A stretch of 63,608 nucleotides of DNA, counting the filler, from Hausera hauseri (taxonomy: Eukaryota), in NCBI GenBank assembly GCA_046269625.1. It is 13 parts of 13 records of this genome, joined end to end, with 100 filler letters (N's around TTAATTAATTAA, not from the genome) between each part and the next. Parts side by side here need not be neighbours in the genome. Positions count along the whole stretch, not along the records: positions 1 to 9,502 come from JBJURY010356598.1; 12 more parts are not named here. One strand, 5' to 3'. Of the stretch, positions 1-54,734 are shown piece by piece. Under the pieces are notes generated by a model that saw nothing but the letters and a program-made list of their open reading frames with translations, did not search any database and was not told the DNA's origin. How positions within the stretch are numbered: the stretch's first letter is position 1; every line of letters starts with the position of its first letter. The translations under genes and the position numbers were made by a program.

Positions 1-129
1 CAGAGGGCGGGTATTTTAAAACCCTACCCCGGCTGGGCGGTGATGTGGACGGTGTGGATGCGCACGCAGCCAACATAAGTAATTTTAGGAGATATATTCA
101 AAACAATAAAATTCTATTCTATTTTCATA

Positions 130-1490
130 ACGATGAGGATAATATTTAGGATATCGATGTCCGCGACTATCACAGAGAATGAGCGGCTTGCCGCAATATC
201 CCACTTTCACATACTGCAGTTATTATATTCACAGTTCTTCGGAACATTTTACATGAATGGATTCTACAAGAAGAGGATTTTATTCGTTTTATCACAGACC
301 AAGGCGAAAATATTAAAGCTGCATAAAAGCCTTACAAGTCAACCTTGGTCCAATCCAAGACGATGACGATACAGAAAACGATGAGGAAAATATTTCTGAT
401 ATCGATGTCGAGGAAAATGTAGATGATTTTCTGGCAACTATCACAGAGAATGAGCGGACAATCCCAAAAAATCTCTTCTGTTATGCCCACGTGATGTGTA
501 CAGCATTTAGCATTATTCTTCACAGTCCTAACAGTCCTGTTCATAAACTGAAATGAAAAATACTACCACTAATGGGACATTTTTCAAAGTCTGGTAGGGC
601 ATCAGAGCAGTCGAAAAAGTTATCAGGGAAAAAATAACTCATTTTCGCTCAAATGCGTTGGAACTCCTTCTTCTATGTATGTAATCTATTGCTGCAGTTG
701 AAAAGCCATGTGATAAAAGTTCGTCGAGAAAGAAATATCCCGATTTTATTCCTGTGGACACAGGTCAAGAAGTTTGTGAAACTGATGAAGCCGATTTCAT
801 CACAGACAACACTACTTTAGAGTGATATGTACAGCACAATTTGTTCTGTACTGCCAGCTTTGTTGTCTATTATAGACCACCTGTCCGATCTTGATGCAGA
901 CAATGTTTATGGTGAAAACTACAAGTCATTAAGCGGTAAGCTTCATGCTGAGATTGATCGACGATTTAAACGCGTCCTATATCCACGTGCTGTAAATTTT
1001 GATCCCACTGGGCATATTTGTACAATATTGAGCCCAGATAACTTTAAAAAGTTGTCTCAATTTCTCTATTAAGCTGGAGTTAATGAGTTGAAGAAATTTT
1101 TCAATCACAATCGGCCTAAAGATTTAGATGAGAGCCAATGATATCTGCAGTTAAATGCACCCGCAGTACCTATAACCTAAGAACAACCTGAAGAAAAGCG
1201 TCGTCGTGCGATTGTAACACAGTCGCAATCAAACGCTAAGCGGCAAATCTCTGAAACTGAAAACTTTAAAGACGTTATTTCTCATCAGTTCTGGCAAAGC
1301 AATACAGATCGCTTCAGCACAATCTATCACCTGGCATTGCAAATGTTGTCAATTCCTGCAACAAGTACTCAAGTCGAGCGTTTATTTCCTGTCGCTGGGT
1401 TGGTGGCGAGTGGCAGAAGCACAAATATCGGACCACACTGGTCGAAGCAGAAATCCTAATAAGAATGATCGAGAAATTATTGAAATAACT
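130..1490 (+). mobile_element. hAT-family transposase remnant (stops, frameshifts, internal duplication)
   Basis: FITDQGENIKAA (~288-323) resembles the hAT TDN-x-x-N catalytic Asp region. FWQSNTDRFSTIYHLALQMLSIPATSTQVERLFPVAG (~1290-1400) is the hAT C-terminal dimerisation motif (SIPATS..ER.FS). The segment ~130-200 is duplicated at ~377-465. Confidence 0.8.
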
Positions 1491-1759
1491 AACTTCCTGT
1501 ACTTTGCATTGCATTTTCCAATTCACATTTGATGCAAAACTGTATTTTGTATTATTTGTGTACTAATTATATTTGTGTGGCTTGATTTGTAGTTTTGTCA
1601 ATTAATAGTGTCTGTCATTCCATTGTTAACCGCAAAATACCTAGTTTTTCATCAAATTATTTACCTACTTCAATAAAGAACTAGGTAAAATTCATTAGTT
1701 TATTAAATGAACTAGTAAAAATTCACATTACTAACCCATTTCCAGGAAAAACAGGCAGC

Positions 1760-2610
1760 ATTAATAGTAGCTATACAGTACCTTTCAAGCTTGATATATT
1801 CGCATTTGCCGAGGTTAATTCGAATCATGCTTCTGAAAGAAAATATAAAGTACATCGAAAACGTATCATGGAATGGAGAAACTAAGAATCAAACTTCTAA
1901 ATGCTTGTATATATTGACAGTACTAAAAGAAAGAGATTGGAAGGAAGTGGTATAAAGTGAAATTCGTTGAAATGGAGGATGTGCTGTATGAATGGATCGA
2001 TAAAGAACTCAAAGGAAAGCATCGTGTTACCCGAAAGATAATTAAAATAAAGGCTCTCGAGATTATTCGATCTGAGCGTGATGATGATGATGTTATGTTC
2101 GTGGTCTGTGAAGGATGGTTGTGGCGCTTTATGATGAGAAAAAATTTGAGCTTACGGAGAAAAGCTACTGTTTGTCAAACACCGCCTTCTAATTATGTCC
2201 ATAAATTAGTGAATTTCGTATTGATTGTCCGAAATTTACGTATTCAACATAAAAATTTATAAGCATGACTTTTGCTTGCGAAGAAACAGAGGTATGGTTG
2301 GATTGCTGAGGGTCAACAACAGTGAAGAAGACTGGTGCACGAGAAATTTCTATTAAAACGATCATTCACGAAAGGGTGAAAATCAGAGACATGCTTTGCG
2401 CAAAAAGTGATGGAACAAAGTTGCGACTTGACAGCGTCTAATTAAAGAATTGGAAAATTTTCACTCAGGTCTCGAAATGAAAAAAGTTGCATGGATCACG
2501 TCTTAGTTATGGAATTTTACATTGTCGTTTATTGATTTGGCAATATTCCTGGCGGGTGTACAAAATATATACAGGCTCCTAATGTTTCATGGAATAAGTC
2601 ATAGAAGAAC
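1760..2610 (+). mobile_element. pogo/Tigger-like transposase remnant
   Basis: N-terminal HTH (YTVPFKLDI..KYKVHRKRIMEW), CENP-B-type HTH in ORF 1957-2262 (EDVLYEWI..VTRKIIKIKA..GWLWRFMMRKNLSLRRKAT), and broken DDE_1 pieces (CAKSDGTKL; IPGGCTKYIQAPNVSWNK). Confidence 0.85.
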
Positions 2611-3658
2611 TAAAAGCTCCAGGTGTAATCATTTAACAAAAGCCTAATTGCATCTAGTTAGAAGACGATAGAGATGCCCAGTTTTTTTCGCAGATATTTG
2701 ACTAAACTTGAAATCTTGTCATGCCAGGTTGTAGGCGCTCTCTAATCTAAAGGGGAGCTATAATGTTTATTGGGCAGAAGCGTCCGGTATACTCATCGAG
2801 GTGTGTTGTATGTTGAGATTCTTACCATTGAAGAGAAACATAATGAAACTTAGTGTAAGCACTCGTGGTTGAGAAAATCTTAGTTAAGAATCTTCATGAA
2901 GTGTCCATCGTAGGCTAAATATGTCAATGATTTTCCAAAAATTCTGGTTCGTTGTAGTAACTTTTACAACAAATTTGCGCAACTTCTTGATTCTTTATGA
3001 TCATCCGCATTAACATGGATTGATCACTAGATATACCTCTGATGTGAGTTCAGCAATTCTAGTGAACAATATTTCAATTCAGCTTTATTTTCTTTCAACT
3101 ACAGATAAAAGAAATTTTGGGAAGTAGAAGATCAATGAAAATGTGACATTTCACTCATGCACAATGCTAAACACGATATGATCAAGCAAATAGCAACAAA
3201 CGATGGTTTACTGCATATAAACCAAATATAATGCTCTTCAAAATTACACTTCTACAGTATCCTCGTATTTCCTTTGTACTTTTGTTAATGTGCAAACGCC
3301 AAATAGGTGTACATTGAGATTTTTACGTAATTACGTAAACGGAAGAATGTGACCAAAAACCTCTGACATTTTGGGGTGTTGTTGTTTACCGCCGTATAAA
3401 TTGCAACACCCCAGTTTTCAAAATTCTGATGATAATAGGTGATTTTACATTTTCTATTTATACTTTAAAATAATACACTATTTAAAACTAAGATTAAATC
3501 AGGAGCTGCTGATGAACTGGTCGTTATTTAGTGAAAAAATGAGCTGCATTTTCACAGAATCATTGTCCATAAAGCCTGAAAACAATCAAGTAAAATACAT
3601 AAAGTTTTGATTTTATTGTGGAAAAGTTGCATTAGCTGAGTTTTGTGTTTTCTGTCAG

Positions 3659-3990
3659 AGATGCATCGAACTCAAACCAAATATGAAGACATGTTCATCC
3701 TCAAAGTTTTCATATTCCAGTTTGTGAACTTCTACTCAACTCCAGTCTACATCGCCTTCTTCAAAGGCAGGTGAGAGCTGCTCCCGCAAATCACAACGGG
3801 CCTCTAAGCTTCTTCCATGTAATATTTTTATCAAGTATTTGAGTGGTTCTGCTTCTAATCATAAAGTCGTTTGATTTTCTCCAAAGACTTGGCTTGTGTT
3901 TGTCCTAACAAGCTTGTTTGTCGGTGTCTCTTCAGTTTCGTTGGTTACCCTGGGATGTACAACACTCTGTTTGGAATTCGCAATGAAGAT
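3659..3990 (+). CDS. ANO7: two spliced exons (3659-3770, 3936-3990) of an anoctamin, ANO7-like; gene fragment
   Basis: Canonical cag|..|gtgag and ttcag|..|gtgagt boundaries. The spliced peptide (E)[55 protein letters not shown] closely matches vertebrate anoctamin-7 as I recall it. C-ending codons differ from neighbouring genes. Confidence 0.85.
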
Positions 3991-4009
3991 GTGAGTTTGT
4001 CTTTAATGT

Positions 4010-5347
4010 TTGAAAGAAAAACAAATATTTCCTTAATGAATCTCGAGCCATTGCTTTTTTTGACGCTTTAGCGGTATTTGGATTCTCTTTATACCGACTA
4101 CATTCGTAATATTCTGCTTGATGAGTCTTCCAATCTTGAAGGCACATCCAACAAAAATTATATTTACACTTGAAACACATCATATGATTACAGCCACCAT
4201 TTTTTTTAATACACACCCCACATTCCGGGCAATCTTTCGTATAGGCTGTGATGTAATTAGCTGTTTCCCAATCGTCCCGGCATTTTAAAAGCCATTGTTT
4301 GATAGTTTTACAACTGGTCGGTGCATGATATGCCAAACCACATTTGAAACAATATTCCGCTGAACATTTACTGCACTTAACACGCTTAGCTTTCGGATTT
4401 TCGGCGTAGACAATTATATTGTACTCATTGTTTATACAGAATCTCAGTTGAAGAAGACTCTCAACTATAATATTAAACTGGTATTTCTGAAACATATCTC
4501 GAAATTTTGAGCCAGTCAAAATATCCAAAATCATATCCTCCATCACCGCCAATTTACACTGATTACCCATACACTCAATCAGATCCTTATTCTCGAAATT
4601 CTGATCCAAATGAATCGAAAAGTAATTGAACCAACAAACATTACAGTACTGATGTCCACAAACCATTCCAACCAGAGGATTGTTAACGTCAGTGTTTAAA
4701 TAACAAATTTCACAAACGGTATTCTGGGAGTTGCACACGCCTGCCGGTAATGGATTGGGTTTTGTCGATTGAATTACAGATTCTACACACGGATAATACG
4801 ATTTCCATAAAAATTCTGATTTGGACTTTTGAGCGTCAATTATTAATTTAAGGCAATTTGGTAAAATTCTCGATCTGATAAAAACAGTGAATGTATTACT
4901 TTCATAATCTTTCACAACATCCTCAATAGACCAATTGTATGATATTAAAATTAATTTTGAAACCACAAGACTCATATTGATATTTTTTGATAATTCTTCA
5001 ACAGCCTTGTTCAATATGCTTTCAACGTCTTCCAATTGTAATTCTTCATATTTCAGATATTCAGGATCAATTTTAGGATCATTGGACTTTGAGAAATCAT
5101 CTTCACCATACAAATACTCCGTGTCTGAGAAAAGTTCTGTTTTGTAAAGCCCATCGAGATCTTGCATTAATGACGAAACAGCAGGCCTACTGTCGTTTGA
5201 TTGTTTATAAATATCCCTTAAAATGTTGATAGCAATTCTTGAGAGCGCTTGCAATTCTTTTTGTGACCAATTCGATACGAATTTGTAAAATAATTTCGTA
5301 TAATCCAAATTGTCTACTTTATCATCTGTAGACTTTTCTGACACCAT
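4010..5347 (-). pseudogene. ARIH2: Ariadne-2-like RBR E3 ubiquitin ligase, intronless, truncated at the start of the Ariadne domain
   Basis: RING1 (CEIC..CGHQYCNVCW..C), IBR, and RING2 ETANYITAYTKDCPECGVCIKKNGGCNHMMCFKCKYNFCWMCL..YYECSRYKENP. Homology ends at ARDSLRKYLFFFQ; the ORF tail is antisense ANO7 sequence. Confidence 0.9.
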
Positions 5348-5508
5348 TGTTAAATTTGTTGAAAGTGAGTAGATAATTCCAAATAGACCAAAAAAGATAA
5401 TATATAATTCAAATTAGACCAAACAAAGTCTTTATTGTTTTAAAATTAAAATTTCCAATAATTCATTAACAATAAACGATATGCATAATCATAGAAACAA
5501 ACAGATAA

Positions 5509-6290
5509 TTATACACTGCATATTACAATAGGTGGTTTGTACAAACTGAGATCGGGTTTATTCGCCGGAATTTGGTAAAGTTGATTATCGCTTTGACCAG
5601 TGATTTGGTTGGATTTATTCGCTAGAAACCTCAACTGCAACTGATCATATTCTTCATTGGGTTTTTGTTTATATAAACATTTCGATAACAAGAATTCTTT
5701 CAGATTAATTAATGTTTTCTTATTGCACCACATCCACATTGCTGACGTCGAGCCATTTATTTCATTGGTCTATGTTCACATAGTAGTACATTTGACATCC
5801 GATATAACAAATCATCGGCACTCCATAAACTCCACAAAATATCCCCGTTTTTGCAATAAACTTATCCAAACTCTGCTGGTTTTTTTTATGAATCCAACCA
5901 TAACGATAATTTATTATGAACGATATTCGTTCGAAGTATGAGTAAAGAATGAAACGAAATAGCCAGTAAAAACTGAACCTAACGTAAAGAAAACAATTCT
6001 TGGTACGAGAATAAATATTAGATTTGTCTTCGAATTTTGTCGTCCAATATAACAACTGCCCAACAATTCGTCAGCGTCAATTTTATGTAAAATCAGAGCC
6101 AATGTTGCCTGAATTGCGGGAATAGACCATGATACCATGTGCATGATGTTACTCACTCTTCACGATTCTTTAGAATTAAAAGTCTTCAAAGTCACTTTCT
6201 GTCTTTGCATGAATTTGCCAAAGAGCGTATCTCATGTACTTTGTTATTTTAGGAATATGGTGGTACACGAGCCCGCGGCACCACACTCGT
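5509..6290 (-). pseudogene. Frizzled (FZD4/9/10-like) 7TM C-terminal half, frameshifted, 5' truncated
   Basis: MHMVSWSIPAIQATLALILHKIDADELLGSCYIGRQN; LDKFIAKTGIFCGVYGVP; TSAMWMWCNKKT (degenerate KTxxxW region). No CRD. Confidence 0.85.
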
Positions 6291-6560
6291 TATTCTTTTT
6301 CATACTCAAGTTCTTCTCTTTCTGCTAAATTTCTGATAAGTACAGAACTGAAATTTTTAATGGTGGTTTCGATTTGCTCAATTGTGTTATATAGTTCTTT
6401 GGGAGTCTTATATTGCAGTTCTGAAACAGAACACAAATAAATCCGTTGTTGTTGTTCACCAACCCAATCATTATCACCGCTAATTGGAGAAGCATATTCA
6501 CCATTATCATCATCGCCATTATCAGATCCATTCATCTGTACAAATAAATAACCAAATTGA
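6290..6560 (-). pseudogene. FEZ1/FEZ2 (UNC-76)-like coiled-coil fragment
   Basis: ELYNTIEQIETTIKNFSSVLIRNLAEREELEYEKE matches the FEZ motif L..LA.RDELEFEKE. It stops abruptly and abuts the Frizzled piece. Confidence 0.7.
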
Positions 6561-6978
6561 ATAATTGGGATGAATGCCATGACAGCAATGTTCACATTCG
6601 TACACTTTTCAGGACTTTTTTGGTTGGTCTTGATTGCTTGGTGATGAGGTACTAACAGACGGACTGCTATTTGCAACAGTGATCGGAAGACGTCCTTTGT
6701 CATTATTGGAAGTAGATGAATTGTGAAAATCGAAATTGATAGCGTTGATTGAATAATCGGTAATGACTGTCGAGGATGAATCTTTGTTCAGAATTTGGTT
6801 TTCGCTTTTGAATTGATGACATACTAAAAATGGGAATTCGATTGACAGAATCGAGTATTATAATTGTTCGGACCTGAATTGTTCATGGGAAACAAATGAA
6901 ATTTTACATACACAGAATTTAAATAATTTTCTGTTTACATTCAGATATTAAAATCTTCTTTATTGCGGTGAAGAGTAG

Positions 6979-7280
6979 GAATATCGGAGCCCGCCTATGT
7001 GCCCGATGCGCCAGCAGTGGACGCCCGGCTGTGCCTAACCGAATGGGCTAGAGGGCGACAGTCGATGTGGGCACCACACAGACACTTTTTCGTTTTCCGA
7101 TTTTTTTCTCTGCGTCCCTTTTACCCTTTATAATTTTCTCTTTGCCACGGGGAGTGGGTAATGTGGTGCCCACAGCAGCCGGCGCCCTCTGGTCCATTTG
7201 GTTGGACACGGCCGGGTGTCCGTCGCCGTCGCATCGGGTACATAGTTGCGCCCGAGTCCCGGACTCGGAAATTTTACTAA
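6979..7280. repeat. GC-rich inverted-repeat element (about 84-bp arms 6995-7078 and 7162-7245, plus perfect hairpin 7252-7268); dispersed repeat
   Basis: The reverse complement of the right arm aligns ungapped to the left arm. A small palindrome CCGAGTCC-C-GGACTCGG follows. A homologue of the left arm occurs at 15307-15415. Confidence 0.85.
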
Positions 7281-7305
7281 ATTTGTTCAAATTTTGGATT
7301 GTGTT

Positions 7306-7899
7306 ATGAGCACAGGACGTGCTGCCCCGGGATCTACTGAACGATTCTAATATTTAGAACAGTTAATTTCCGAACACCAACAATTTGATCAATTTGATAA
7401 TCGAAACCAAATCGTTGCCAATCTTGAAAATTTTGTGTACGATTGTCGTAATCATCGAGATTTGGTTAGATTGAACGTCCTAGACGTATTTTTTCATTGT
7501 TTAATGCAACAGGACAGTACCGAGGACATTAAATTGCATTCCGTTATTGATATTTGCAACATTTGTGCAAATCAACTATATCATTCGATAATTTACAACA
7601 ACGACAATTTCTGGTCATTACTGAATTTTTTATCGTCACCACACTTTGCCATTATCATCATAGCAATCACCGCCTTCATTTATTTGTGCGACACCGACAT
7701 AGGCCGATGTTCAGTCCTCTTGCCGACCGTCGTCAAGACCTGTCGGAATTTGCATCAGTCAACGAATCCACGATTGCTGAACATTGCCACCATATTTCTC
7801 TATCATTGCGCTACATCGGACAGCCGTGCGATTTGCACGAATGACGATCCAATACTATTTCTGGCCGTTGCCGAATCACCCGCGCATTTGCCACTGTAA
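7306..7899 (+). pseudogene. ARMC7: Armadillo repeat-containing protein 7, intronless, one in-frame TAA (7348-7350)
   Basis: MSTGRAAPGSTERF*YLEQLISEHQ..QIVANLENFVYD..LNVLDVF..ICNIC..LSSP..AITAFIYL..NPRLLNIATIFL follows the ARMC7 pattern over 198 codons. Confidence 0.85.
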
Positions 7900-8940
7900 A
7901 CCGGTCGTCCGCGTTTTACCCGGTTTCGTCACGATTTTCTTGTTATTTGATGGCACTTCCGTGACAATTTTCCGTCCGGAATGTCTCCAGCCGACATGTG
8001 TTAGTGTGGATTACGTCCGTCATTCACTGAAGAAAATGTCCCCAGCTGATGTCGTTGTCAATGGGGAATTGTTTGTCGATTCTAAAAATCCACCATCACA
8101 AACTGTCGAGAATATCATGTCACACAGCGCACTCAATGCCGCGTTACCGTTGTCCCAGCAAATCGATATTTATTTGAAGCTCGGCAAAATCTGACTTACA
8201 CCTCTCGTAGTGCTGACTGCCTGCTGTGGCAGTCTCATGACCTCTAATACAATCGATCCATGGTTGTTGCTCATTGCCAGTGCCTGTACTTTGTCTACTA
8301 AGCTATCAGCGAATGCCTTCAATCAGGTCATGGAAATACCATTTGATTCCCAAATGGTTCGTACTCGAAATTGACCACTCGTAGTCGGCAAATTGAGCCC
8401 ATTACATGCCACACTATTTGCTACAACGAGATCGATTGTTGGCTTATCTCTACTGTTGTACTGTTCACCGTACTTATTTCTTATTGGTTTACTCAATTTG
8501 ATCCTTTATGTTATTATCTATACTCCACTGAAACGAATAACGATCTATAATACGTGGTTGGGTTCAATCGTTGGTGGGATACCACCACTCGTTGGTTGGT
8601 CTGCCATTACAGGTCACATAGATGCCGGTGGTTTGCTCATTGATGCGATTTTAATATTCTAGCAATTTCCCCATTTCATGGCTCTCAGTTGGAATTTACG
8701 GTCTGATTACGCACGAGCCGGTTATCAAATGGCACCGGCCGTCTGCCCGAGATTATGTAAACTATCTGCATTACGTCATTTCATTTTACTATCGAGTTTG
8801 TGTCCTTTATCGACCGTGGTTGGTTTGACAGATTGGTGTTTCCCATTGGAAATGCTGCCATTCAATGCTTTGTTGTGTTTACTTGCGTTCAGATTTTATC
8901 AAGATGCGAATAGCTTTACAAGTCGACATTTGTTTAAGTG
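7841..8940 (+). pseudogene. COX10: Protoheme IX farnesyltransferase (heme O synthase), intronless, 3 in-frame stops, 3' truncated
   Basis: ANAFNQVMEIPFDSQMVRTRN*PL; YTPLKRITIYNTWLGSIVGGIPPLVGW; *QFPHFMALSWNLRSDYARAGYQM. ORFs 7784, 8393 and 8678 share one frame. Start position is approximate. Confidence 0.92.
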
Positions 8941-9059
8941 TTTTAAAAATATACATATTTACAAACGTATTTTGAATTGTCACTTTGTGCCTTCATTTTA
9001 ATATTCTCATTATTTATCGCTGAACTTTATTTCGCTTATAATTTTTTTACAGTCTAGTT

Positions 9060-9502
9060 TATCGTTCGACTGGATTTAGTTCGTACAGCCGTCTACCGTT
9101 TATGATAACTACGAATTTTACACGGGAGTCCAAAACAACCCAACAGCGGAACAAAATAGTAATAATACCAGCGACATATTACAACTATTGGAAGATTAAA
9201 AACGCGGACACCGAATGTTTCAAGCGGGGAAAGAGGTATTAGTAAAAAAAGACCCAAAAAGAAAGAAAGATGGGGGTAGATACGAAGAACCATACCGAAT
9301 AATTAAATTTCTTACTCAACATCAGGCGGTACTACAATTTCCGAATAGATTGAAACCCAGGCGAATCGAGTGACTGAAAAGAGTGACGTCAAACTATAAA
9401 ACGGAGAGAGAGGGAAGTTAGAAAATGTGATAATTTGTTTAAATAATGTCAGTGTTATATTAGAAATATAAATTGATATGGAGTCTTCTAGTTCTCTTAC
9501 TG
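9060..9502 (+). mobile_element. probable LTR retrotransposon 3' end (integrase GPY/F tail, polypurine tract, start of LTR)
   Basis: Broken ..PYRIIKFLTQHQAVLQFPNRLKPRRIE*LKR, then the purine run GGAGAGAGAGGGAAG (~9403-9417). Confidence 0.4.
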
Positions 9503-9602
9503 NNNNNNNNNNNNNNNNNNNNNNNNNNNNNNNNNNNNNNNNNNNNTTAATTAATTAANNNNNNNNNNNNNNNNNNNNNNNNNNNNNNNNNNNNNNNNNN
9601 NN
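9503..9602. other. artificial contig linker (44N-TTAATTAATTAA-44N); identical linkers at 13649, 18333, 22602, 27299, 31623, 36006, 40551, 44960, 49055, 53717, 58496
   Basis: An identical 100-bp spacer with stops in all six frames occurs 12 times. Confidence 0.99.
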
Positions 9603-13748: not shown

Positions 13749-15310
13749 ATGCACCTGTGAAATGGCAGTGATCCTTGACTTTCCAATTTTCCTTGGTGAA
13801 GGACTTGTCACACAAGTAGCATGATATTGCCTTGTGCCATTCTTGTTCTTGTATCCAAGACATGCTCATGTCGTACTTATGCTGCTGCAACATATCGCCA
13901 AGTCTATGAGCCATGTCTTCAAGTCTCTTCATGAAATGTGCTGCTGCACCTAGACCCCTGAATAGATATGGTTCACTGTCCAATCCTTTGGCATACATAC
14001 AATACTATGATATTTCGTGATATTGGTATGCCGTTGTACTGCTATGTTGACGACTGGAACTGAATGTATGAATTGTCCTAAGAATGGCTTCAAAGTCGCA
14101 ATAGATGACAATTGGGATCTGGATCTTCTCGAATTCTTTAAATTCGATATAGTCCTCTTTGGGAAATTCTGACCTTACACAATAATTGTTGTTACAGTAT
14201 TTCTTATGCTCTTTAAGGTTGTCCACGGCTTCTCCACCACTGAAATAGGACAAGCATCGTTTGCATATTTCGATTCCGTGTTCATGATTTTTTATTTGTG
14301 ATCTGACTAGACGCTCAAAATTCTTTATCCAAACATAATATTTCTTATCACCGTTGTCTAGTAGGAGCAGATTCCTATGATCTTCCAATGCACCATCACA
14401 TATTTGTAATGGGTAGAATTTGTCCTCCTGATTGAATCCAAAGATATTGACGGACATGTTGTTGATGCGGCTGAACTTCTTGATTTTATCTATGGATGCA
14501 GGGAATGTGATTGACTGAAAGTCATAGTTGTGTTGGAGATCATTATATAGTGAAACACGGTAAGCATGATTTACATACATTACGAGTTTTGATAGAATGG
14601 CATATATGAAGCACATGTTGTCATTGTTTTGAACATTGACGCATGCTTTCTTATTAACAATCCATTCCGGAAGCTGTATATATGAACTGCCTCGCATGGG
14701 GGAGTATCTGTGTACATATATAAGCAGTCTCTTGATTGTTGCCAGAGCCCATCCACTCTTCTTATCCTGGCTCTCATCGGCTTCACGGATCAGCGTCGTA
14801 TGCTCTTCATGCAGTTATTCAGCTATAATTGTGTTTTTTAATATGGGCCTATTTTTGGTCTTAAAGGTCTTATTTGATTCTTCAGCATCGACATTGACGT
14901 ATGTGGCCTCAAGTTTCATATTAACCTTAAGGGCCTTGAGCTCAGTTATATTGTCCTGGAGGATCCTCTCTGTTTCTTCCTTTGCATATTCCAAAAACTC
15001 CTTGATGGTTCTTTGCCCAGCTGCATCAATGACATATTTGCTGACTTTTTTTAATGCAGCAGCATCTACTGGCCTCTGTCTTTGGCTTTTTGATGGAGCC
15101 GCTACACCGGCATCTGAGGGGCCTGATGGGCGTTTTACTTTTGCGGGCTGTACTGCGGACTGTACTATGGACTGCATTGCGGATTGTACTGTAAATTGCA
15201 TTGAGGACTGTACTGCGGACTGTGCAACTGGCCTATGCTCATTAAATATGATCTTCTTGGATTTTGGTGCTAAATCAGTCAGATGATTCTTATGATATTC
15301 ATAGAACTGT
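13749..15310 (-). pseudogene. Polinton/adintovirus-type protein-primed PolB, N-terminal part (subfamily A)
   Basis: SGWALATIKRL..KYSPMRGSSYIQLPEWIVNKKACVNVQNNDNMCFIYAIL; CKRC..H..YC zinc finger; IVIYCDFE exonuclease motif I; CYLC..KVKDHCHFTG endonuclease-VII-like insert. Confidence 0.9.
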
Positions 15311-16006: not shown

Positions 16007-17503
16007 ATGGAAATGTCAACCAGTAAAGTGATGAAAATTACGAAATTTTTTCCTGATGATAAAAGCAAAGTTGTTCAAACTCTATACGAACCGAATGAAA
16101 CGTGTAAATCGGTATTATCGGATAATAATAGCCAAAAAGATTCTGACGAACCAGAAGAAAAAGTCATTCGAATAATCCCAACAACAGACGATTGCCCAAT
16201 TGAGAATAACATTATCGTTAAAACGGATTCTTCATCTGATGACAAACCAACTACCGAGGAGAATATCCTCTTTTACAAGCCGGATTCTGATGAATTCAAG
16301 CCGGTTGATGAAAATTCAACAAATAACGCCGGTGACTCATCGTATCAGCCGGATTCACCCAGTGATAAAAGCGATTACTCCTCAAAATCTTTATCTAAAG
16401 GTCCGACAGATTCATCGATAATGGCGCAGTTCAATCAAATAGCCCGGGCCAGAAAGACAACAGTACCCCGATGTAGGAGAACTGTATTACCGCACAAAAC
16501 AACAACACCACGCTACATGACTCAACCGGTTATTTCCGACAAACCTGGTAGCTCCGAATCACTCAGAGACCCGGATAATTTAAATTCATGCGATGCTGCA
16601 TGCACAAGTAGCGCACAAGATATGGCTTCTCTTCCGATGGAGGGTAAAAATAAATTCACGTTCGAAATTCATGGCCACGAATATCCAAATTTAAACAAAT
16701 ACTCTAGAACTCTGTCTGGAACAACAACATCCGCTCGGGATCTATTGGATACGTTAGAAAACGTTCCACTTCGACGAGAAACAGCCTTGGATGCTGATAA
16801 CAAATCAGACCGCAGTGCATACAGTGAAGACCTTTCAGCTAGTCCGGAGAATCTGTCCAGTGCTGTTTTCTCCGATGAAATAAAATTCGCCGGAAAACTC
16901 AGTGCCAAAACCGAACGACACATGTCGGGCGGGTCTCTTAGCGGTGCACAGAATTCTGGTAGAACGTTACAAACGAGTCTTCCGGGTACGTTGAAAAAAT
17001 CTGTACCCCAACACATTCGAATTCATAGTGACGAAGTTAAACCCCAACCAGAATCCATTGCAGATTTGACTTCCGATTATTTAAGTCGAAAAATTTCGAA
17101 AAGTGATAAAAAGGACACGGATCTTTTACAGTCGACTCAGTTGAGCTCGAGAGTTTCACCATTTAGACACGGCATTGAAACCGTTGGTTTCGATACTGCT
17201 GTGTTGAGATCGCCAAGTGCTTTGGCTCTTATGAAATCGACATTAAATCGAAGCAGATCTGGAATTGCAAATGTTTCACCTAATCAGAGATCAACAGAAT
17301 TGAGTTGCAATGATTCAGCAGATAGAAATAAAATTGAAGGAGGTATAAATTTATGCTTTTTAATTATTTTTATTTTGTTATGTCTACTTTGTCCTCCTTT
17401 ATGTTGCATTTTAATGGAGAAGGTAAAAATTGTAAAGACAAGTCTATTAATTATATCAATCAGTGTAAAAGAACAAAACAACTATGGACGGATAGCACCC
17501 TGA
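16007..17503 (+). CDS. large Ser/Asp/Thr-rich, probably disordered host exon of unknown function
   Basis: 498 stop-free codons in AT-rich DNA. Likely splice donor GAG|GTATAA at ~17344, after which the ORF tail looks intronic. No domain recognised. Confidence 0.55.
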   Translation: MEMSTSKVMKITKFFPDDKSKVVQTLYEPNETCKSVLSDNNSQKDSDEPEEKVIRIIPTTDDCPIENNIIVKTDSSSDDKPTTEENILFYKPDSDEFKPVDENSTNNAGDSSYQPDSPSDKSDYSSKSLSKGPTDSSIMAQFNQIARARKTTVPRCRRTVLPHKTTTPRYMTQPVISDKPGSSESLRDPDNLNSCDAACTSSAQDMASLPMEGKNKFTFEIHGHEYPNLNKYSRTLSGTTTSARDLLDTLENVPLRRETALDADNKSDRSAYSEDLSASPENLSSAVFSDEIKFAGKLSAKTERHMSGGSLSGAQNSGRTLQTSLPGTLKKSVPQHIRIHSDEVKPQPESIADLTSDYLSRKISKSDKKDTDLLQSTQLSSRVSPFRHGIETVGFDTAVLRSPSALALMKSTLNRSRSGIANVSPNQRSTELSCNDSADRNKIEGGINLCFLIIFILLCLLCPPLCCILMEKVKIVKTSLLIISISVKEQNNYGRIAP

Positions 17504-18114
17504 TGTATTCTAAAATTGAAGGTCAAAGACTTTTGTCGGTATTGGTTCTGCAATACCGAAATTTTGCTAAATGATTGAACATTTCTTTTATCAATGAAAC
17601 ATAAATGAAATATTAGTGGATCATTATTATTTAACAAGGGAACTATCATTGTAATGATATACATCTAACAGTGAAAATATTCATGTACATAGATAATGTC
17701 ATAGGGATGTCATATCTACAATCAGAAAGTGCTGAGAATGAAAATATGAAGAACTGAGGGACAATAAATATTTCACGGATTCTGTGTCAGACAACAAAAA
17801 ATTAATACAAATTTTGCTTAATTTTGAATGTATATAGTTAAATTATGATATGCACATATACATGTCACTAAAATATCAACAGCACATCCAATTGCTGGAA
17901 AATGTATTTTACAAAATGTCTAACAAAATATCCATGGAAATGACATTTACATGGTTCGGCCATTAAGTAATTAGACTCGACAAGAAATAATTGACATAAA
18001 AATGATATTTCAGGTGATCATACTTAAATATATATAGATAATGAAAAGTGTTTTTGTTTTTCTAAATTACTTTTGTTTTGACAAAAATTGCTCTATTTCA
18101 ATATTTCGTCATAA

Positions 18115-18247
18115 AATGCCAGATAATGTTGAGTTTCGAAGCGTCATAAAGTTTCTGATTTTGAAGAAAACTAGCAGCCAAGAAATTATTGCACAACCGC
18201 AGGACGTTTACAAGAGTGAGTGCCCTTGTGATAAGTTTATAGATTAA
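18115..18247 (+). mobile_element. mariner transposase N-terminal HTH fragment
   Basis: MPDNVEFRSVIKFLILKKTSSQEIIAQPQDVYKSECP fits the Mos1-type E.R.VIKF....EI...L..VYG pattern. Confidence 0.65.
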
Positions 18248-29994: not shown

Positions 29995-30997
29995 TCATTT
30001 ATTCCCCGCAATGGCATTTTTCAATTTGACTCCTCTGACCGTTCGGAATTTTTCATCCAATTTTCCTTGTTTTTTCTCTTTTCGTCGTTCTCTCTGAGCA
30101 TCTTTCACTTCTTGTTTACGATTTTTCTTTTCATCGAGTGTCTCATTTTTTGATCTGCCGACCTTTTGTGTCGGTTTCGTCGTCAATTCCTGCTCAGCTG
30201 TCTCGTCATTTTGTCCGCTGTCAGCTGAACTTTCCATCTCCTTTTTTAATTTCAATTCTTTCTTATAATTTTTCTTCATTCGTATCAAATTCGGTCGAAT
30301 ATTTTTAAACTGTTGAGTCATGCCGGTCAATGGGGCGAATGGGAGATGTTCAACGAAATTCGGATCACGAACTAATTGACGGAAATGTTCCAGGAAAGCT
30401 TTGTCGTCGATCGCTGACAAATGTCGAGGAATGTGGAGACCGAGAAACAGTTCCTCTGCATCTTTATTAATAATTCCTTAACAATTCGAAATGGCATTGC
30501 GCAGATTTGTATAAAATTCGACATTTGTATGATGGCAAATATCCAAATCGACAACGAATTCGAAAAATTTTTGTAACGAAAGAGTTTTGACGCCTTTCTT
30601 ACGGAAGAAATTGTTGACGTTGTAGCAATCATATCGGAGGAAATCAATGGCGCGTGGATGTTCGTGCTCGACACTTTGGGAAACGTCGATCATCCACACT
30701 TTGTCATTGAAATAAAGGAGATTGTATTCACTCAAATCGGCATGAATAAGACGGCATTCCTGAAATAAAATTCGAACATAAGAAACTACTTGCACATACA
30801 AATTCGTCCATTCCTCGACCGTCTCCAATTCGGTGTCTGCCAAACGAGGAGCGGCGTTCCCATCGCTACCAACGAGAGTCATCAACAGCACCATGCACTT
30901 CAATTTCAGAGGTTTCGGACAAGGAATTGCTCCATCGGTTTGATGAATACGCAACAGATTTCGGAATTCTTTCTCCGCCCATGTTTTGACTTTATTT
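29995..30997 (-). pseudogene. RIOK1: RIO1 atypical kinase, intronless, 5' truncated, one in-frame stop (30478-30480)
   Basis: KVKTWAEKEFRNLLR; LIHADLSEYNLLY; IDVSQSVEHEHP; basic tail KQEVKDAQRERRKEK. ORFs 30478 and 29995 share a frame. Confidence 0.92.
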
Positions 30998-31722
30998 GTG
31001 CTGTGCCTAATGAATACAGTTTGTTGTGACTGTGGTGCAGTGGTTTAGTTTCAGGTTGTGCCTTCAGACTGGCTGCTTCACATCATTAAAAAACATTTTT
31101 CTCCGTTAAAGTTTCCCCAAAATGGCCTTGGTTTCACATTTGAAAGTGCAGCAAGCACTTATCTTATTTTGAGTTCGTTTGAATATTTGGATATGAAAGT
31201 TAATGATGCACAGAGAATGTATGTGTAAAATACAAACAAATATACTAAGGGGTGAAATAAATAAATTATAGTTTAATAGTGACATTTAAAGTCACTCATA
31301 CAAAGAGGAAAAGACCCCGTATATGGGGTAATATAATGAGGAAATTAGGCACAAACCAAAGGGGTGGAATAAACGAAGAGAATGAGGACGTTGAAACGTT
31401 AGAAGAAATAGAAGAAAAGTGGCGGCTGTTGATTACACTGGTAAGAAAGACTGAATTAGAGTAGATTAAACCAAAGTTCAGCAGCAGGATAAGGAAATCA
31501 GAGTGATGAAGGCTCATGAGGACCCTTGCTGTTAGGATGAGAGGTGTCACCTTAAAGGCTGAAGGTATAAAAACACTTAACAAATATAGTAATTTGGTAG
31601 TAATTTCTATACTCTAGCTCAGNNNNNNNNNNNNNNNNNNNNNNNNNNNNNNNNNNNNNNNNNNNNTTAATTAATTAANNNNNNNNNNNNNNNNNNNNNN
31701 NNNNNNNNNNNNNNNNNNNNNN

Positions 31723-36412: not shown

Positions 36413-36709
36413 ACTGACTTACTTTGTGTTTTTTGAGATTTATTTTTTCTCGGACCAATAAAAAAATGAATTCATGTTACATATTTTGTTTTCTCGTACA
36501 AGGTTGTTGTATTACTTTTACTTTTATCCTACTTGATAATATTAGGTTAAGTAAGTAACCGAAAGCAAAACACAAAAGACACTGAACAAAGTACATTATT
36601 AACATTTAAATAAAACAATTTACAAAAAATAATTGTCAATAATTGTCACAATATCAAGGCCATATTGAATTGCCTGTATCCCATCTGATCTGGCACCACC
36701 GAACGTGTT

Positions 36710-39700
36710 TTATTTCAACCTCCAATATCCATACGTCTAAGTATTATTTTGCCCGACCCATTTTCGCTTACCATTGCAACATGACAAAGCTACTTTCGCA
36801 ATATTTATTGTATGCAGCTGGTGCTGAATTGATCGGATGATCGTTCGAGACATAACAGCCTTTGATTGTCCTCCTGCTGCTGCTACTTTATATATACGGC
36901 GGTAATCACCGTGGCCGATTTTCGTCTGTCTCCGTTGGACTTCTTTTGCCCGCATTTCGGTCCACAGTCCGTCAGAAGACTGAAACACTTTGGACGTAGG
37001 AATATTTATTCTCGATACCGGATACGACCTACAATTTCATCCTTGAAGCAGCCGATTTTATTGGCTATGAAGCTGCTGTACAACGGATGATCCGGTGAGT
37101 AGTTAAACGTGTCCAGTAATCTATCTGACAATATTTGCTGTAGTAGCTGTTAGCGATTAACTCTTTTCAGTTGCAGAAAAAAACTGTCTGTGTCACAGGC
37201 AATTATGTCAATATTGTAGCCGTTAAACATTTGCCGGCAACGTGCCAAATCGCGATACTGTATCTCATAGATCCGCAACTTGCTCAGGTCCAATAATACT
37301 TGTTTGATGTAGCTTGGCCAGTCCAGAACGAATTTTTCCCTGTTTAATAGCACCGCAACCAATCCATCGGCAATGTGCATTGACCATCGAAACAGTGCCT
37401 TGCTGGTGTACGTATACAGTCGCTTTTCCGATTTCCATAGGCGCACATTGAGTTGCTTTTTCAGATTCCACACTGTTTTACCGAACATGGAATTGTTTTT
37501 CAGCTTGTCGTAGTCCTTTTTGAACTTTGTACAAGCTGTGACTCGTTTCTCCGAATTTCCATCTATGTACGCCTTGAGCATAGGAGTCTGAGCAGATCGG
37601 ATTACACGATACGGCTGTGTGACGCATACACCTAGCTGCATGTAGAACTGTAGCAGACGCCAATGGACCACGTACTTCAGCTTCTGTTCATGCGTTATGA
37701 GCAATTTCTTTACCTTTGAGTCTGGCGGACATAGGTTAAATGAATCGACCGCTAAATCGTCAAAAACTTCATGCAGCTCATCTGGTATCTCGATGCCATG
37801 CCGCCGCGAATACGAACATCAAACAGTCTGTACTTTTCCGGGTCTATCAGCAGCTCAGTGTCTCGATCCAGTGACATTAGAGCTGACGCCCAACTCATTC
37901 CCGGTATGGAATAAAAGTTGAGTGGCTCCAAGCTATCTTCCACTAGCAATAATCCAGCATGTAATCCAACGTGTTTTTACGGCCCAGCTCTGGCCAAGAT
38001 TCTTGTGATCTACGATATTCATTTTTTGCGATACCTGTCCATCACGGCGGTAATTCTTCTGCTGTCCGGAGTCGCCCATATGATGTTGCAAAGCCATATG
38101 GAAATATGCCTTTGCTGCGTGCAATATGTGCAGGAAATTGCGTCATTGCTACCGGTACATCTTGCAAGGCATTTACCAGCTTTACCAATTATTCATTGAG
38201 AAATTGCAATGAATCAAGGATGCGTACATGGAACCGGTTTATGCGTGCTGACAGGGACACGTACTTCTCTATCGTTGTTGGGATTATAGACAGTTTCCAG
38301 TGTGGATAGCCGTCAGTGGCTCATTTTAGAATATGGTGACAGTCATATCCTCAAAAATTATAAAAGATCACCGGCAGAAATGGTCGCACTCGTCTTGCTG
38401 AATGGCATGAATTGCATGCTCCTCCGAAATATCGACCGGTGAAATGGTCGTGATCCGGTATGAGCCGTTTCTGTGCATAAAACGGTATTATTTTTCTGCA
38501 TGGATAGCATTCATCGGTGACAGCGAAAAGCAATGGTTGATATTCGTCTGCCCAAATCAATGGCTTATTGCAATTGTCGCGATACCACTGTGCAATTTAC
38601 GTTTCCACTATGGTTTCCAACTGCTACAGGAAATCACGTACACAATTCTAACCATGGAAAACGTAATACTGCGGTTGTCCGGAGGCTTCTATTGGAACTA
38701 GAAACATACCGACGGCAATTAAAACATGCTTTTGATCGTATACATTGTGTTGTGGTAGAACTGCTTCTATATCGGCTTACATCACATATGCGCGACTGTC
38801 TGTTTTATACCAATCACTGAATCTGAGCTCCTTTTTGACAGGCATAACGTACATTGTTGTCCCTAATGCGTGTGCCTGCATAGCGTGATATGTTTCGCCC
38901 ACGTTGTTTCCGATATAAATCCATGCAGACATATAGAACGCCATTTGCATCGTATTCGCTTTTTGATGAAATGACCATGCTTCATGTTCAACAGTCTGTC
39001 CAGATTTGTCACTGCCACGTAATGAAATTTTTCAGTCTGCTCCAACGGCAAGAAATTTACCGAGCTTTCATTCGGGTTCGACTGAAATAAATTATGTCCA
39101 CATAGGAGTTCTTATAAATTTCCTCGTCTTCCGGTATTTCATCTACTGTGCTCTACAGGAAAATGTTGATTTACAGCGTCGGAATACGTCATTCAAAAGC
39201 AAGAATGGTTTACAGTTTCAACGGCATTCAGAATTCATCAAATTGCAATTCGGATAAATACTGCCGATACTGATTTAAACGATTTTCATGATATCTGTTC
39301 ACTTCGATGTACTTCAATACAGCCAGAATACTGTACAGAAAACGGTATTCGTCGTCGTCATTATTATGTACATTCACTACCGCCAGAAACTGCTTTAGAG
39401 ATGCAGGCGTCGGTATGAATGATCGTCCACACAAATATACCACGTCACTTTACTTTGGTATGATAAAGCCGAGTGTGACAATTCGTACAATTTGCCATCA
39501 ACTACCCTTTTCCGTATAGCTGGCGATTTTCTCCTCTAACTTTTCGCTTACATCGGCAATATATCTTCCCAATACGGTACGGCTCGATGTGATAGATACC
39601 ATTGTTTCCTGTCACCTTCAACGTTTTCAAATTATCAAGTGCATAATATTGCACTTTGCAGTTGTTGAGTTTGAATTTCGCCACTTCTATTTCCAACCGG

Positions 39701-40370
39701 CTGAGCATACCGGACAGAACATGACTCAACTGTAGTGTTGTTGTCCCCGACATGTTTACTTTCACGTCCATGTACGATTTGTTTAGATCGTAATAGACAG
39801 TAATGGAAGGTTTCTACTGTTTCATCTGCTCATGCCGCTGCTGTTGTTCGGTACTGTTTTGGGTTAAGTCCTCAAGATTTGCTGAGGCCTGACGTTTCTA
39901 CTTGTTGAGGGGATACTGGTTTTTCTTGTCGCCATCACTGTTTCCATTTTGGACCGCTGAAATCGGTTTAAATGGTCTGTGTGCTGGTTATAAGATTGTT
40001 TATAACTGATTTCATTAACTATAGAACAACCGGGACAAACGTAGGCCCGTTTACCGTGCCCCGTTTTGTCGCCATAGTACTGCTCCATTACACTATGGCA
40101 ACCATCAACGTCATGCTCTCTACTACTACTACTACAGTATCGCGTGTATGTGGGACAACGCACAACCATCATCCTCTTTGCTCGTGTAAACTGACCAAGA
40201 TTATGTTTGCATATCACGTAAAAGTCTGGATATGGACAAGGGGCCAAAATACTACCGCATGTTGGACACAAATATGAGTCCATGCCAACGGAGTAATATT
40301 AAGCCATATGCTGATGGCACTGCTCCTGCTCCACATGTATGCGCGAGACGCAATATATAGAATATTGGTT
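36710..40370 (-). pseudogene. Polinton-type protein-primed PolB, near full length (subfamily B)
   Basis: Two N-terminal Cys/His repeats; GRSFIPTP..VVNVHN; PDHDHFTGRYFGGACNSC; PVIFYNF..GYD; IRGG; KLKNNSMFGKT (motif B); DTDS (motif C); FLRPKCFS; KRKWV..YGYW end. The motif A region appears deleted. Confidence 0.9.
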
Positions 40371-42830: not shown

Positions 42831-44959
42831 TTTATTGGGTGTATTTTTGTTTCTTTTATTCTTATTCAAATAGACGTTTGTTTTATCTACTTTTTGGATC
42901 ATATACAGACATTTATATGGTCTATATAATTTCGGCATCTTGCCTTTCATGCTCAGACGTGTGTATAACAAAACTTTGTCTCCAGGCTTAAAATTGTGTG
43001 ATTTAGCTTTTTCATCGTAACGTTTTTTTATATTCCTTTTGACATATTTTTGTATGGCGTGAAGCTAGATTCCATACATAACCAAGTTTTTCTTCCAATA
43101 ACTCTTTATACTCCATGTCTTTCAGGTGGGAGACGGGCATTTTAAAATCTATATCAACTGGCATGTGAGTATCCCTAAGATACATTAGGTAAAATGGAGT
43201 TTTTTTCATCGCAGGGTGAATTGTGTTTCTGATTGCAAATAAGCATAGTTTGATATATTCGTCCCAATCATCCTGTCGTTCATTGACCATTGTTGCCAAC
43301 ATATTGGTTAAAATTCCATTAAATCTTTCTACTGTTCCGTTGGTCTGCGGATGATGTGGAGTGGTTTTCAGTTGTAGTATTTGAAATATTTTTGAAATCT
43401 CTGCCATTACTTCTCCTGTGAAGTTTGGGGCTTGATCCGTTAATAATTTAGTAGGTGCTCCGTAATTAAACACAATTTCTTCGACAAACGCCTGGGCGAT
43501 TGTCTGAGCCTTTTGATCCGGTATTGGGACCACAACTGGCCATCTGGAGAATAGGTCGACAAATACTAACATGTATTTGTTTCCATTTATTGTCATAGGT
43601 AACGGTCCTAGAATGTCCATGGCCGAGAATTCCATTGGGGCTGGTGGACATTCTATTGGTTTAAGAGGAACTTTGATCTTTGAACCAGTATTCCTTCTAG
43701 TGGCACAAATTGGGCAACTCTTACACCAATCTTGAACGTCTTTAGTCATAGTGTGCCAATAATATTTTCTTTTTAGTCTTCCTAAGGTTCTTTTTAGTGA
43801 TTGATGACCTCCCGTCATGCCATCATGATATTGTGTCAATAACAACTTTATATCTTCTTAAGGAACAACTACAACTAGTTTTCCTTTATGGTTATAATAT
43901 AATACATCATCCCTTATTTTATAATTTTCAGCGAAGCTTTTTAAATTGGCGTAAAGATCTGTGTCATTCTGTATTACTTTTCCTTTCAAAAATTCTTTAA
44001 TTTGTTTAAGTTGTTCATCATTTTGCTGCCTTTGCAATAATGATTTCTCTTGTCCTGTGATGCTCCATATAGCTGCTATAACACCTGGTTTATCTATGGA
44101 TTTTCTTTCAGTTTGATCTATATCTTCTGGTATTCTAGACATATAATCCGCATTAGCATTCGCTTTTCCCATTTTATATTCAAATTGCAGATCATATGGC
44201 TGGAGCAGCATAACCCACTTCATTAGTCGACTATTCGGATTTTTGTAATTTTTCAACCACTGTAACGGTTTGTGATCAGTATAAATGATAATAGGTTTAG
44301 TTTCTGATAAGTATTGGCCATATTGTTCCAACGCGTAAACTATTGCAAGTAATTTACGTTCGATTGTTAATTAATTCTTCTCGTGTTTTCTTAACTTTCT
44401 TCCTCCGAACGATATCGGATGTTCTTATCCTTGATCATCCTTTTGTGATAGAACAACTCCTATTCCGACTTTGCTGGCATCCGTTGCTAAAAAATATGGC
44501 CTTGACATATCTGGATACGGTAATATAGGCGGAGCTAATAGATTATCTTTTAATTGTTGGCAAGCTTTTTGACATTCTTGAGTCCAAACAAGTTTAGAAT
44601 TTTCCTGTAGTAATGAATGCAATGGTGAAGCTATCTACTGATAATTTTTAACAAATTTTCGGTAATCGCCTGTGAGGCCAAGAAACTTGCGAACTCCCTT
44701 AACCGTCTTCGGGNNNNNNNNNNGACTGGAAAATCTTGAATTTTGTTTATCTTTCCTATTTGGGGACTAATGCATTCTCGGCTTACCGTATGGTCCAAAA
44801 AGTCTACTTTAGTTCCGGCAAAACAGCATTTCTTTAAACTAACTTTTATTCCTAGAAGTGCGCATCTCTGTGGCATATCCTTAAGATGTTCCTTGTGCTG
44901 TTTGTAATCAGTTAATGCGATTATTACATCATCTACATAACACATTATGTGTGGAGCAT
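42810..44959 (-). mobile_element. Ty3/Gypsy pol (RT YVDD, RNase H, integrase)
   Basis: CYVDDVII; LATDASKVGIGVVLSQ; YTDHKPL; HDGMTGGH..YYW..CKSCPIC; MDILGPLP; LTDQAPNF; HPQTNGTVERFN; SH3-like tail. 10-N internal gap at 44714-44723. Confidence 0.95.
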
Positions 44960-45059: not shown

Positions 45060-45512
45060 ACAAACGTATCTGGATATATTTAGAACATCCTTGTACAGAT
45101 CGTCAAGATGTTTAGATGTGGCGGCGACTAGAAAGCTTTTGCACGTGTACTCGGATGCTAACCAGAATTCCCCGAGCTGATTTACAGATTTCTGATATAC
45201 TGACTGATAGTCAACGACATAAACAGAAGAATTGGGAAACGGCTTTCCAAGTTCAAGTACCTCAAGAGGTGTGTCTGCTACATCTTGAGTTTCAGTGATC
45301 CGATTATTTCGAAGCGCAGCCTTATCGTGATACACTGTCCTTAGGTAACTTGATTTTGGTATCTGCGGAAACAAACCCAACGTCCATGGGCTAACAATCT
45401 CAACTGAAAGGGTACATAACCCAAATTTTGCATCATCGAATATGTTCTGAAAATCTCGAATTAAAGCTTGATTTGGTCTGTTATTGACACAAACTGTTAG
45501 TGACTTAACCTT
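45060..45512 (-). CDS. DIP2: DIP2-like AMP-binding domain fragment (third part of fusion ORF)
   Basis: VKSLTVCVNNRPNQALIRDFQNIF..TVYHDKAALRNNRI..LELGKPFP..LGEFWLAS parallels DIP2 EERPRIAL..F..TVYVD..ALR.DRV..ESGK.LP..GEIWV.S. Confidence 0.65.
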
Positions 45513-46545
45513 TTCCTGGTTATAATTTATGTCGTAGACATATCTCATAGCAAACATTTTCCCTAATGTGCAATTCATAATAAAACCTAACACTGCCAAC
45601 ATAAAAGCATCATAAATAATGATTGGCCACAATCTGACATCTGGAACCATTGGTGTTGGCAAACCTTTCGGAATGGGTCCGACGATGTCAAATTTGAACC
45701 GACCATTGAGATTAGCAAAATAAGAAATAACGGTTGCGATAACAACCACGATAAACTGAATGGGAAATGGAAATTTCAGCTTTTTCTTGATAATAGGATT
45801 TATGTAATCCTGAAACACAGCTAGTAGTGCAATACAAATTGCTGCAGTTATGACTGTACCCCAATTGATTTTCGGAATATTCGCGCAGAACAGATATAAT
45901 TTATATGGTAATTCTCCAATATTATTATAGTTTTTAATTTTGTATCCAAGAAGAGAACTCAGTTGAGATAAAATGACATGGAACGCAGCACCTGTTGTAA
46001 AACCGCTAACAAGAACGTCAGACATGTAATTCATTATAAATCCCATTTGGAAAATGCCTAAACCAAGCTGAATAATACCAGCTAACAGTGTAGTGGCAAT
46101 AGAAACGGAAAGTTTTGCACTGTCATAGGTGTGCAAAGATCCATTTAAAGCCGTTGAATTATAGTATGATTGAACATAATTCGTTTCTCGGAAAACGGGA
46201 ATACTTGATAGCAACGACATTAATGAAAATGTACCTATTGAAAGATGTCTAGAAGTTCCAAAAAGCGCATATACCAAAGAAGGAAAAAATGACGAATACA
46301 ATCCATTTACCGGCTGCAATCCGGACAGCAATCCGTATGCTAATCCTTGAGGAATGTGAAAAACCAACATCGTAATGCCAGCAATAAAATCATTCACTAA
46401 AAACTTCCATTTATAATATGAACTTAAAATAAATGGAAACGGTAATATTAATCTGAATGTTGATGCAATCGAACAATCAGTACGGCTTATTTTTTTCTTA
46501 GCTGATTTGATAAAACTGAAGTGGTTGTCATTTTTGGGATAAATG
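45513..46545 (-). CDS. SLC26/prestin-like anion transporter TM domain, cut at NQE (second part of fusion ORF)
   Basis: DFIAGITMLVFHIPQGLAYGLL..GLYSSFFP..FGTSRHLSIGTF; GFTTGAAFHV..SQ; GPIPKGLPTP; YDINYNQE. The last TMs and STAS domain are missing. Confidence 0.92.
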
Positions 46546-53105: not shown

Positions 53106-53339
53106 AGCACATGCACAGTCAGTCAGCTCAGACGAAAACAGTCAGATCAGTACAATTTATAAACTGACTCTCTGTTATTTGATTTTGTAAATAATGTATA
53201 TTTGTTTCACGTATTTTGTTTTATCTTTTTAATTTAACGTATTATTATTATGTAAGGTGTTTAATAAAAATAACGAATTAAGAGAAAAGTAAAATCAATA
53301 ATTTATTAATGATAAAACACAAAAGGCAATTCAAATAAA

Positions 53340-54595: not shown

Positions 54596-54734
54596 TCGAA
54601 ATTTGCACTGTGTAGCACATGGTTTTCAACTAAAACAAGGTTTTCCAATAAATTAAAATTATTTAAAAATCCATAAACGAGACAGTGTACGTTGACATGG
54701 TTATCTTTTATTATTTCAGAAATCACTTCCAAGA

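Follow-up and report, generated by a model that had tools for sequence, protein, structure and literature searches.

Host DNA is common in the genome assemblies of parasites (ParaRef, PMC12548146), and claims that salmonid repeats, mouse albumin and MHC sequences have been transferred from vertebrates to schistosomes have been refuted or contested as contamination (PMC13155389). Chimeric retrocopies made through LTR retroelements carry a short common sequence at the point of the switch, with a median length of 6 bp (Tan et al. 2016, PMC5131818), and the chimeras that form during MDA join unrelated templates with 2–21 nt of complementarity (Lasken and Stockwell 2007, PMC1855051).

Here we describe a join between fish and invertebrate DNA in an assembly of Hausera hauseri (GenBank GCA_046269625.1). 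The window, by which we mean the whole stretch of DNA analysed (63,608 nucleotides), consists of contigs of about 4–5 kb separated by 12 spacers, each made up of N44, 12 bases and N44 (the first at 9503–9602), and there is a separate gap of 10 N at 44714–44723. The join lies in the first piece, 1–9502. Unlike the ParaRef cases, in so far as the available portion of that source describes them, the foreign piece is welded inside a contig, where it cuts a real gene (PMC12548146). As in the schistosome claims, vertebrate sequence of very high identity appears in flatworm data and was first read as host-to-parasite transfer; those claims came from EST libraries or PCR, however, whereas here there is a contig join with a measurable overlap of 20 nt (PMC13155389). 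As in LTR-mediated retrocopies, pieces of unrelated genes are joined at a short common sequence, but such retrocopies derive from a genome's own mRNAs, have lost their introns and share a median of 6 bp, whereas the piece here is foreign, keeps an intron and shares 20 nt (PMC5131818). The likeness to MDA chimeras, that unrelated templates are joined, is likewise limited, in that those chimeras are mostly local inversions within one genome (PMC1855051). No validated insertion of single-copy fish genomic DNA into a flatworm was found in the literature searched. We consider it probable that contaminating DNA of a livebearer fish (Poeciliidae) was joined to the invertebrate gene ARIH2 by assembly software through a 20-base overlap, and most likely no genome contains the weld.

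Ten sequencing runs were listed by a run search, none of them an RNA run; X1–X6 were compared with the window and X7–X10 (shares of 0.05–0.06) were left out. All six compared runs were used as Logan contigs rather than raw reads, and rare variants are dropped from such contigs. Run X1 contains 0.69 of the words of 2500–6500 and carries the invertebrate flanks, whereas runs X2–X6, in which the gene region is present in genomic form, are termed fish-type. The features of the locus are these:

3096–3477: invertebrate left flank with a repeat-like tail; the last base in common with X1 is 3477
3478–3654, plus strand: stretch between the invertebrate and fish matches, CpG-poor and with a pyrimidine tract; probably fish ANO7 intron (3' part)
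3659–3770, plus strand: poeciliid ANO7 exon A, 112 nt, with its acceptor CAG at 3656–3658
3771–3935, plus strand: fish ANO7 intron, GT-AG, 165 nt, present in runs X2–X6 with few differences
3936–3990, plus strand: poeciliid ANO7 exon B, 55 nt, with a GT donor directly after it
3991–4037, plus strand: first bases of the fish intron that follows; matches fish as far as 4037
4018–4037: the weld, an exact 20-nt overlap of the fish intron and the ARIH2 coding sequence
4018–5347, minus strand: ARIH2 (ariadne-2 RBR ligase), invertebrate and intronless, with IBR domains; in the window alone, most of its Ariadne domain is missing
5762–9001: row of intronless gene pieces beside ARIH2 (frizzled, FEZ and a UbiA/COX10-like frame)

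The preliminary description of this DNA had proposed two anoctamin exons with GT-AG sites around a 165-nt intron, with C-ending codons unlike those of the neighbouring genes, and both proposals are borne out. Spliced together, exons A and B give 55 codons in frame, in which C occupies the third position at a frequency of 0.40, as against 0.13–0.20 in all five neighbouring frames. Exon A matches the Pfam domain Anoctamin (PF04547, E 1.6e-12), and the solved structures of ANO6, ANO10 and ANO1 are weaker matches to the segment than ANO7. The CpG observed/expected ratio of 3478–4037 is 0.49, lower than in any of 196 windows taken from the flanks on this contig (minimum 0.64), although 5% of 1374 windows across the whole sequence are as low, and depletion alone is weak evidence. 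(Nine further CpG-poor stretches equal the fish piece in this respect, including 60801–63480, 17201–18120, 43521–44200 and 31001–31600.)

The peptide had also been placed close to vertebrate anoctamin-7, and it is ANO7 of livebearer fishes. A protein search gave 294 matches, of which the 120 listed were compared with the spliced peptide. The closest 20 among these 120 are all from Poeciliidae (genera Poecilia, Xiphophorus, Gambusia and Poeciliopsis), with 2–3 differences in 55 residues, and cluster look-ups yielded no additional poeciliid genus; P0157 of Xiphophorus maculatus and P0071 of Gambusia affinis, for example, have 53 of 55 residues in common with the window. Exon A is 100% identical over 38 residues to ANO7 of Gambusia and Xiphophorus, its best proteins being poeciliid and bearing the names anoctamin-7 or -7-like, and exon B is 100% identical over 17 residues to P0071 and 94% identical over 18 to P0157. 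Thr27, Met44 and Ile51 are found both in the window and in poeciliid ANO7, and the first of these is Ser in every non-poeciliid among the 45 compared rows listed. The codon that spans the splice encodes Ser in the window, whereas the listed poeciliid ANO7 proteins have Arg; the letter responsible is also present in runs X2 and X6 and is absent from X5.

At the level of DNA, 3655–4037, or most of it, is present in all five fish-type runs at about 99% identity, introns included, with 3–5 differences. X3 differs at 3 positions in 383 nt, X5 at 5 and X6 at 4; X2 has 3 differences in 342 nt and a further match, 3967–4037 (71 nt), with 0; and X4 has 3 in 281 nt, together with two 132-nt records with 0 (3906–4037) and 4. 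An intron match had been named beforehand as the check on the donor, and this one, taken with the poeciliid protein matches, upholds the proposal that the segment is vertebrate genomic DNA, not cDNA, and comes from a fish. The donor is a fish, narrowed to the Poeciliidae, and the segment is genuinely part of a known gene of fishes. Only a fragment is present, however: the window carries two exons of the poeciliid gene, residues about 507–565 of 876–891, rather than a complete ANO7 gene. That the exons might instead belong to the animal's own anoctamin gene is a reading to which we give almost no credence. Nothing beyond the shared contig speaks for it, and against it stand the uniformly poeciliid identity of the 20 closest listed matches and the outcome of a tblastn of four full-length ANO7 proteins from fish against the window, in which no other exon reached an E below 0.01. 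The match of the intron to the fish-type runs, at about 99% identity, refutes it.

In poeciliids two ANO7 proteins are encoded on a single scaffold (as in the pairs P0071/P0083, P0075/P0156, P0078/P0154, P0081/P0153 and P0074/P0157), and one fused poeciliid ANO7 model of 1511 residues was found. The two copies are nearly identical around the exons described here; in Poecilia the upstream exon, too, does not differ between them, a pattern that hints at gene conversion. In runs X2–X6 the contig depth of the fish segment is about twice that of other contigs. No paper on a duplication of ANO7 in poeciliids was found in the literature searched.

On the right-hand side of the fish piece, a 395-nt contig of X1 matches 4018–4165 with 0 differences and then carries 247 letters unlike the window before 4018. 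Thirty letters of this continuation, read by hand in the ARIH2 frame, give YYERYENHEL, and homologues have FERYENH, FERWENH or YERYENH at this site. The X1 contig thus reads on in the ARIH2 frame into the Ariadne domain, so that ARIH2 is uncut in X1. The fish contigs, for their part, leave the path of the window after 4037 with the same letters in X2, X3, X5 and X6 (four of the five fish-type runs; none is listed for X4). Since the X1 match begins at 4018 and the fish match stops at 4037, 4018–4037 is common to both sequences, with a mismatch immediately on either side of these 20 nt. The preliminary description had seen a gapless join at ~4010, exactly where ARIH2 is cut. The join is indeed gapless, there being no N in 1–9502, but its point is the overlap at 4018–4037; and the alignment of ARIH2 with seven homologues does hold only to codon 4021–4019, beyond which the Ariadne domain is missing in the window, but the gene carries on in X1. 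(Note that the best match of the ARIH2 frame is 43%, to Owenia ARIH2, and that no close relative was found among 1.84 billion representatives, the best full-length matches being at 39–51% and fragments at up to 70%. In a tree of ARIH2 the window sequence sits on a long unplaced branch.)

For a random join of unrelated sequences, at least 20 shared bases have a probability of about 8e-11 under an order-0 model, a rough figure. In the same type of model 5.5–16.7 positions of the 1330-nt ARIH2 stretch are expected by chance to share a 20-mer with a 700-Mb genome, and unrelated contigs of X3 have exact matches of 19–20 nt to the window contig at 1644–1663, 4015–4033 and 6923–6941. Because the overlap is improbable at a random join and yet expected genome-wide, the join looks as if it had been chosen by a search of the whole fish genome, which therefore fits assembly software and, less readily, mis-priming in the tube. 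The overlap is exact and of a size used by assemblers or in mis-priming; in de Bruijn assemblers 20 nt is k-1 for k=21, a value to which the weld might be linked. Were mis-priming responsible, the weld would be a real molecule, made in PCR or whole-genome amplification when the 3' end of ARIH2 mis-primed, by way of the 20-nt match, on contaminating DNA of the fish, and then kept by the assembler. We regard this origin as unlikely. It accounts for the parting of the X1 and fish contigs at the 20-nt overlap just as a misjoin does, and complementarity of 2 to 21 nt is seen at the junctions of MDA chimeras. An overlap of 20 nt lies at the upper end of that range, however; local inversions make up most MDA chimeras, and where the joined segments are more than 10 kb apart, complementarity occurs in only 28–35% of cases (PMC1855051). 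Moreover, there is no sign here of an amplified library.

On the left-hand side, a 462-nt contig of X1 matches 3096–3477 with 0 differences and then carries 80 letters unlike the window, and in all five fish-type runs the fish match starts at 3655, the preceding end of the intron differing from that of the window in five of five. The intervening 3478–3654 (177 nt) holds one CpG (observed/expected 0.24, as against 0.85–1.29 in the flanks), a pyrimidine tract closes it precisely where the exon begins, and its read-through resembles P0061 and Amphiprion gene models. On these three features the stretch probably belongs to an intron of fish ANO7, of which it would be the 3' part. It does not encode the upstream ANO7 exon, the best match being 5–6 of 29 residues. 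(X1 is without cover over 3488–4000, which is not counted as evidence given the record filter and the dropping of rare variants from contigs; nor do we count the finding that 3478–3654 occurs in the six runs only as bits of 31–38 nt with 5–6 differences or gaps.) Given the two near-identical poeciliid copies of ANO7, the window may hold a copy, or the DNA of a species, with a different upstream intron; alternatively, there may be a third join inside exon A. Between the ends of the piece there is no target-site duplication, terminal repeat, or pairing direct or inverted repeat.

In the assembler misjoin that we favour, poeciliid genomic DNA would have been sequenced with the invertebrate as a contaminant at a low level, presumably of low cover, and an assembler or gap-closer that accepts short exact overlaps would have crossed over between the two genomes. 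The join on the left, at 3477/3478, would have arisen by the same route, the ANO7 piece would be without function, and ARIH2 would not truly be cut here. Consistent with such a misjoin, the parent sequences part company with the window: past the right join X1 continues ARIH2 and four of the five fish-type runs continue differently, and past the left join X1 continues elsewhere. Run X2 carries fish ANO7 (contig depth 21) together with pieces of invertebrate ARIH2 and frizzled (depth 2–3, 0–3 differences), so that fish and invertebrate DNA do meet in one library, which infection and cross-library contamination fit alike; X4 contains bits of the invertebrate high-depth repeats. Against a misjoin, a single 560-nt piece is bounded by two joins, which calls for two coincidences, and X1 has at least two variants of ARIH2 at 4136–4180 and many variants over 6684–8821. 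The fish piece could be carried by a rare copy, given that rare variants are lost from contigs, or by a different individual, and the assembly may derive from X1 or from another sample. Of the two alternatives offered in the preliminary description, a chimera is nevertheless strongly favoured over host-to-parasite transfer, given that ARIH2 is uncut in X1 and that the overlap is an exact 20 nt.

A real and very recent insertion of fish DNA, or of unspliced fish RNA, confined to some copies or individuals and produced either by repair guided by microhomology or by an LTR retroelement that carries gene fragments and switches templates, is in our view highly improbable. The joins are gapless, the neighbouring gene pieces form an intronless and partly broken row of which X1 has many variants, and LTR template switches do use short common sequences (PMC5131818). 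Such switches share a median of 6 bp, however, against 20 here, and remove introns, whereas the 165-nt intron and the start of the next are kept; the piece is about 99% identical to a living fish, both X1 flank contigs continue elsewhere and no target-site duplication is present. The piece is of foreign origin, as a horizontal insertion would be, but marks of insertion and divergence from the donor are absent, and the earlier claims of transfer from vertebrates to schistosomes have been refuted or contested as contamination (PMC13155389). We would give equally scant weight to the broader proposal that a flatworm with gene-scavenging retroelements recently took unspliced livebearer ANO7 into one copy of ARIH2, as part of an ongoing transfer of single-copy, non-mobile DNA from vertebrates to flatworms.

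Beside ARIH2, the frizzled frame is shifted by one extra base in the window, at 5968, relative to X1 and X2, and the UbiA/COX10-like frame has two in-frame stops, with a sense codon in X1 at 8372. The many variants in X1 suggest that the gene block is probably multi-copy, in which case one copy could differ, and 5762–9001 is probably a decayed copy of it. By analogy with LTR-mediated retrocopies, the intronless neighbours of ARIH2 probably arose in that way. To the left of the fish piece lie relics of a hAT transposase (PF05699) and of a Tc5-type DNA-binding domain (PF03221), at 1181–1459 and 1927–2262, and high-depth repeats occupy 1–76, about 6980–7245 and 9123–9502. A 2070-nt contig of X4 matches 9123–9451 of the last repeat with 29 differences and has the variant letters of X1 and X2 at 9211, 9225 and 9256; this match is more likely to reflect trace invertebrate DNA than a shared element.

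Other contigs of the window bear on the identity of the animal. An intronless RIOK1 frame (29995–31044, minus strand) has one in-frame stop, and the best named matches of 30481–31044 are trematodes, at 59%. In a tree of 26 rows it groups with Macrostomum and trematodes (100/99) and falls outside the clade of the trematodes, as sister to a pair of unnamed proteins; the branches there are long and the bootstrap is unsettled. If all the contigs derive from a single animal, this grouping makes a flatworm other than a trematode the likely source. Elsewhere, an open frame of over 1000 codons (45060–48290, minus strand) seems, from its motifs, to combine an N-terminal portion of unrelated origin with a portion resembling an SLC26 transporter. 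Five contigs carry a related repeat family at 66–76% identity (13749–15101, 36705–40358, 49157–53110, 54703–58334 and 60054–63430), whose frames may be akin to those of protein-primed DNA polymerase elements.

As an artefact, the weld bears on this assembly only: fish DNA is welded inside its contigs, so that gene chimeras or truncations reported from the assembly need read support. If, on the other hand, the join were genomic, it would represent, in a field where earlier claims have been refuted or contested (PMC13155389), a rare entry of vertebrate single-copy DNA into a flatworm genome by a route that could be tested.
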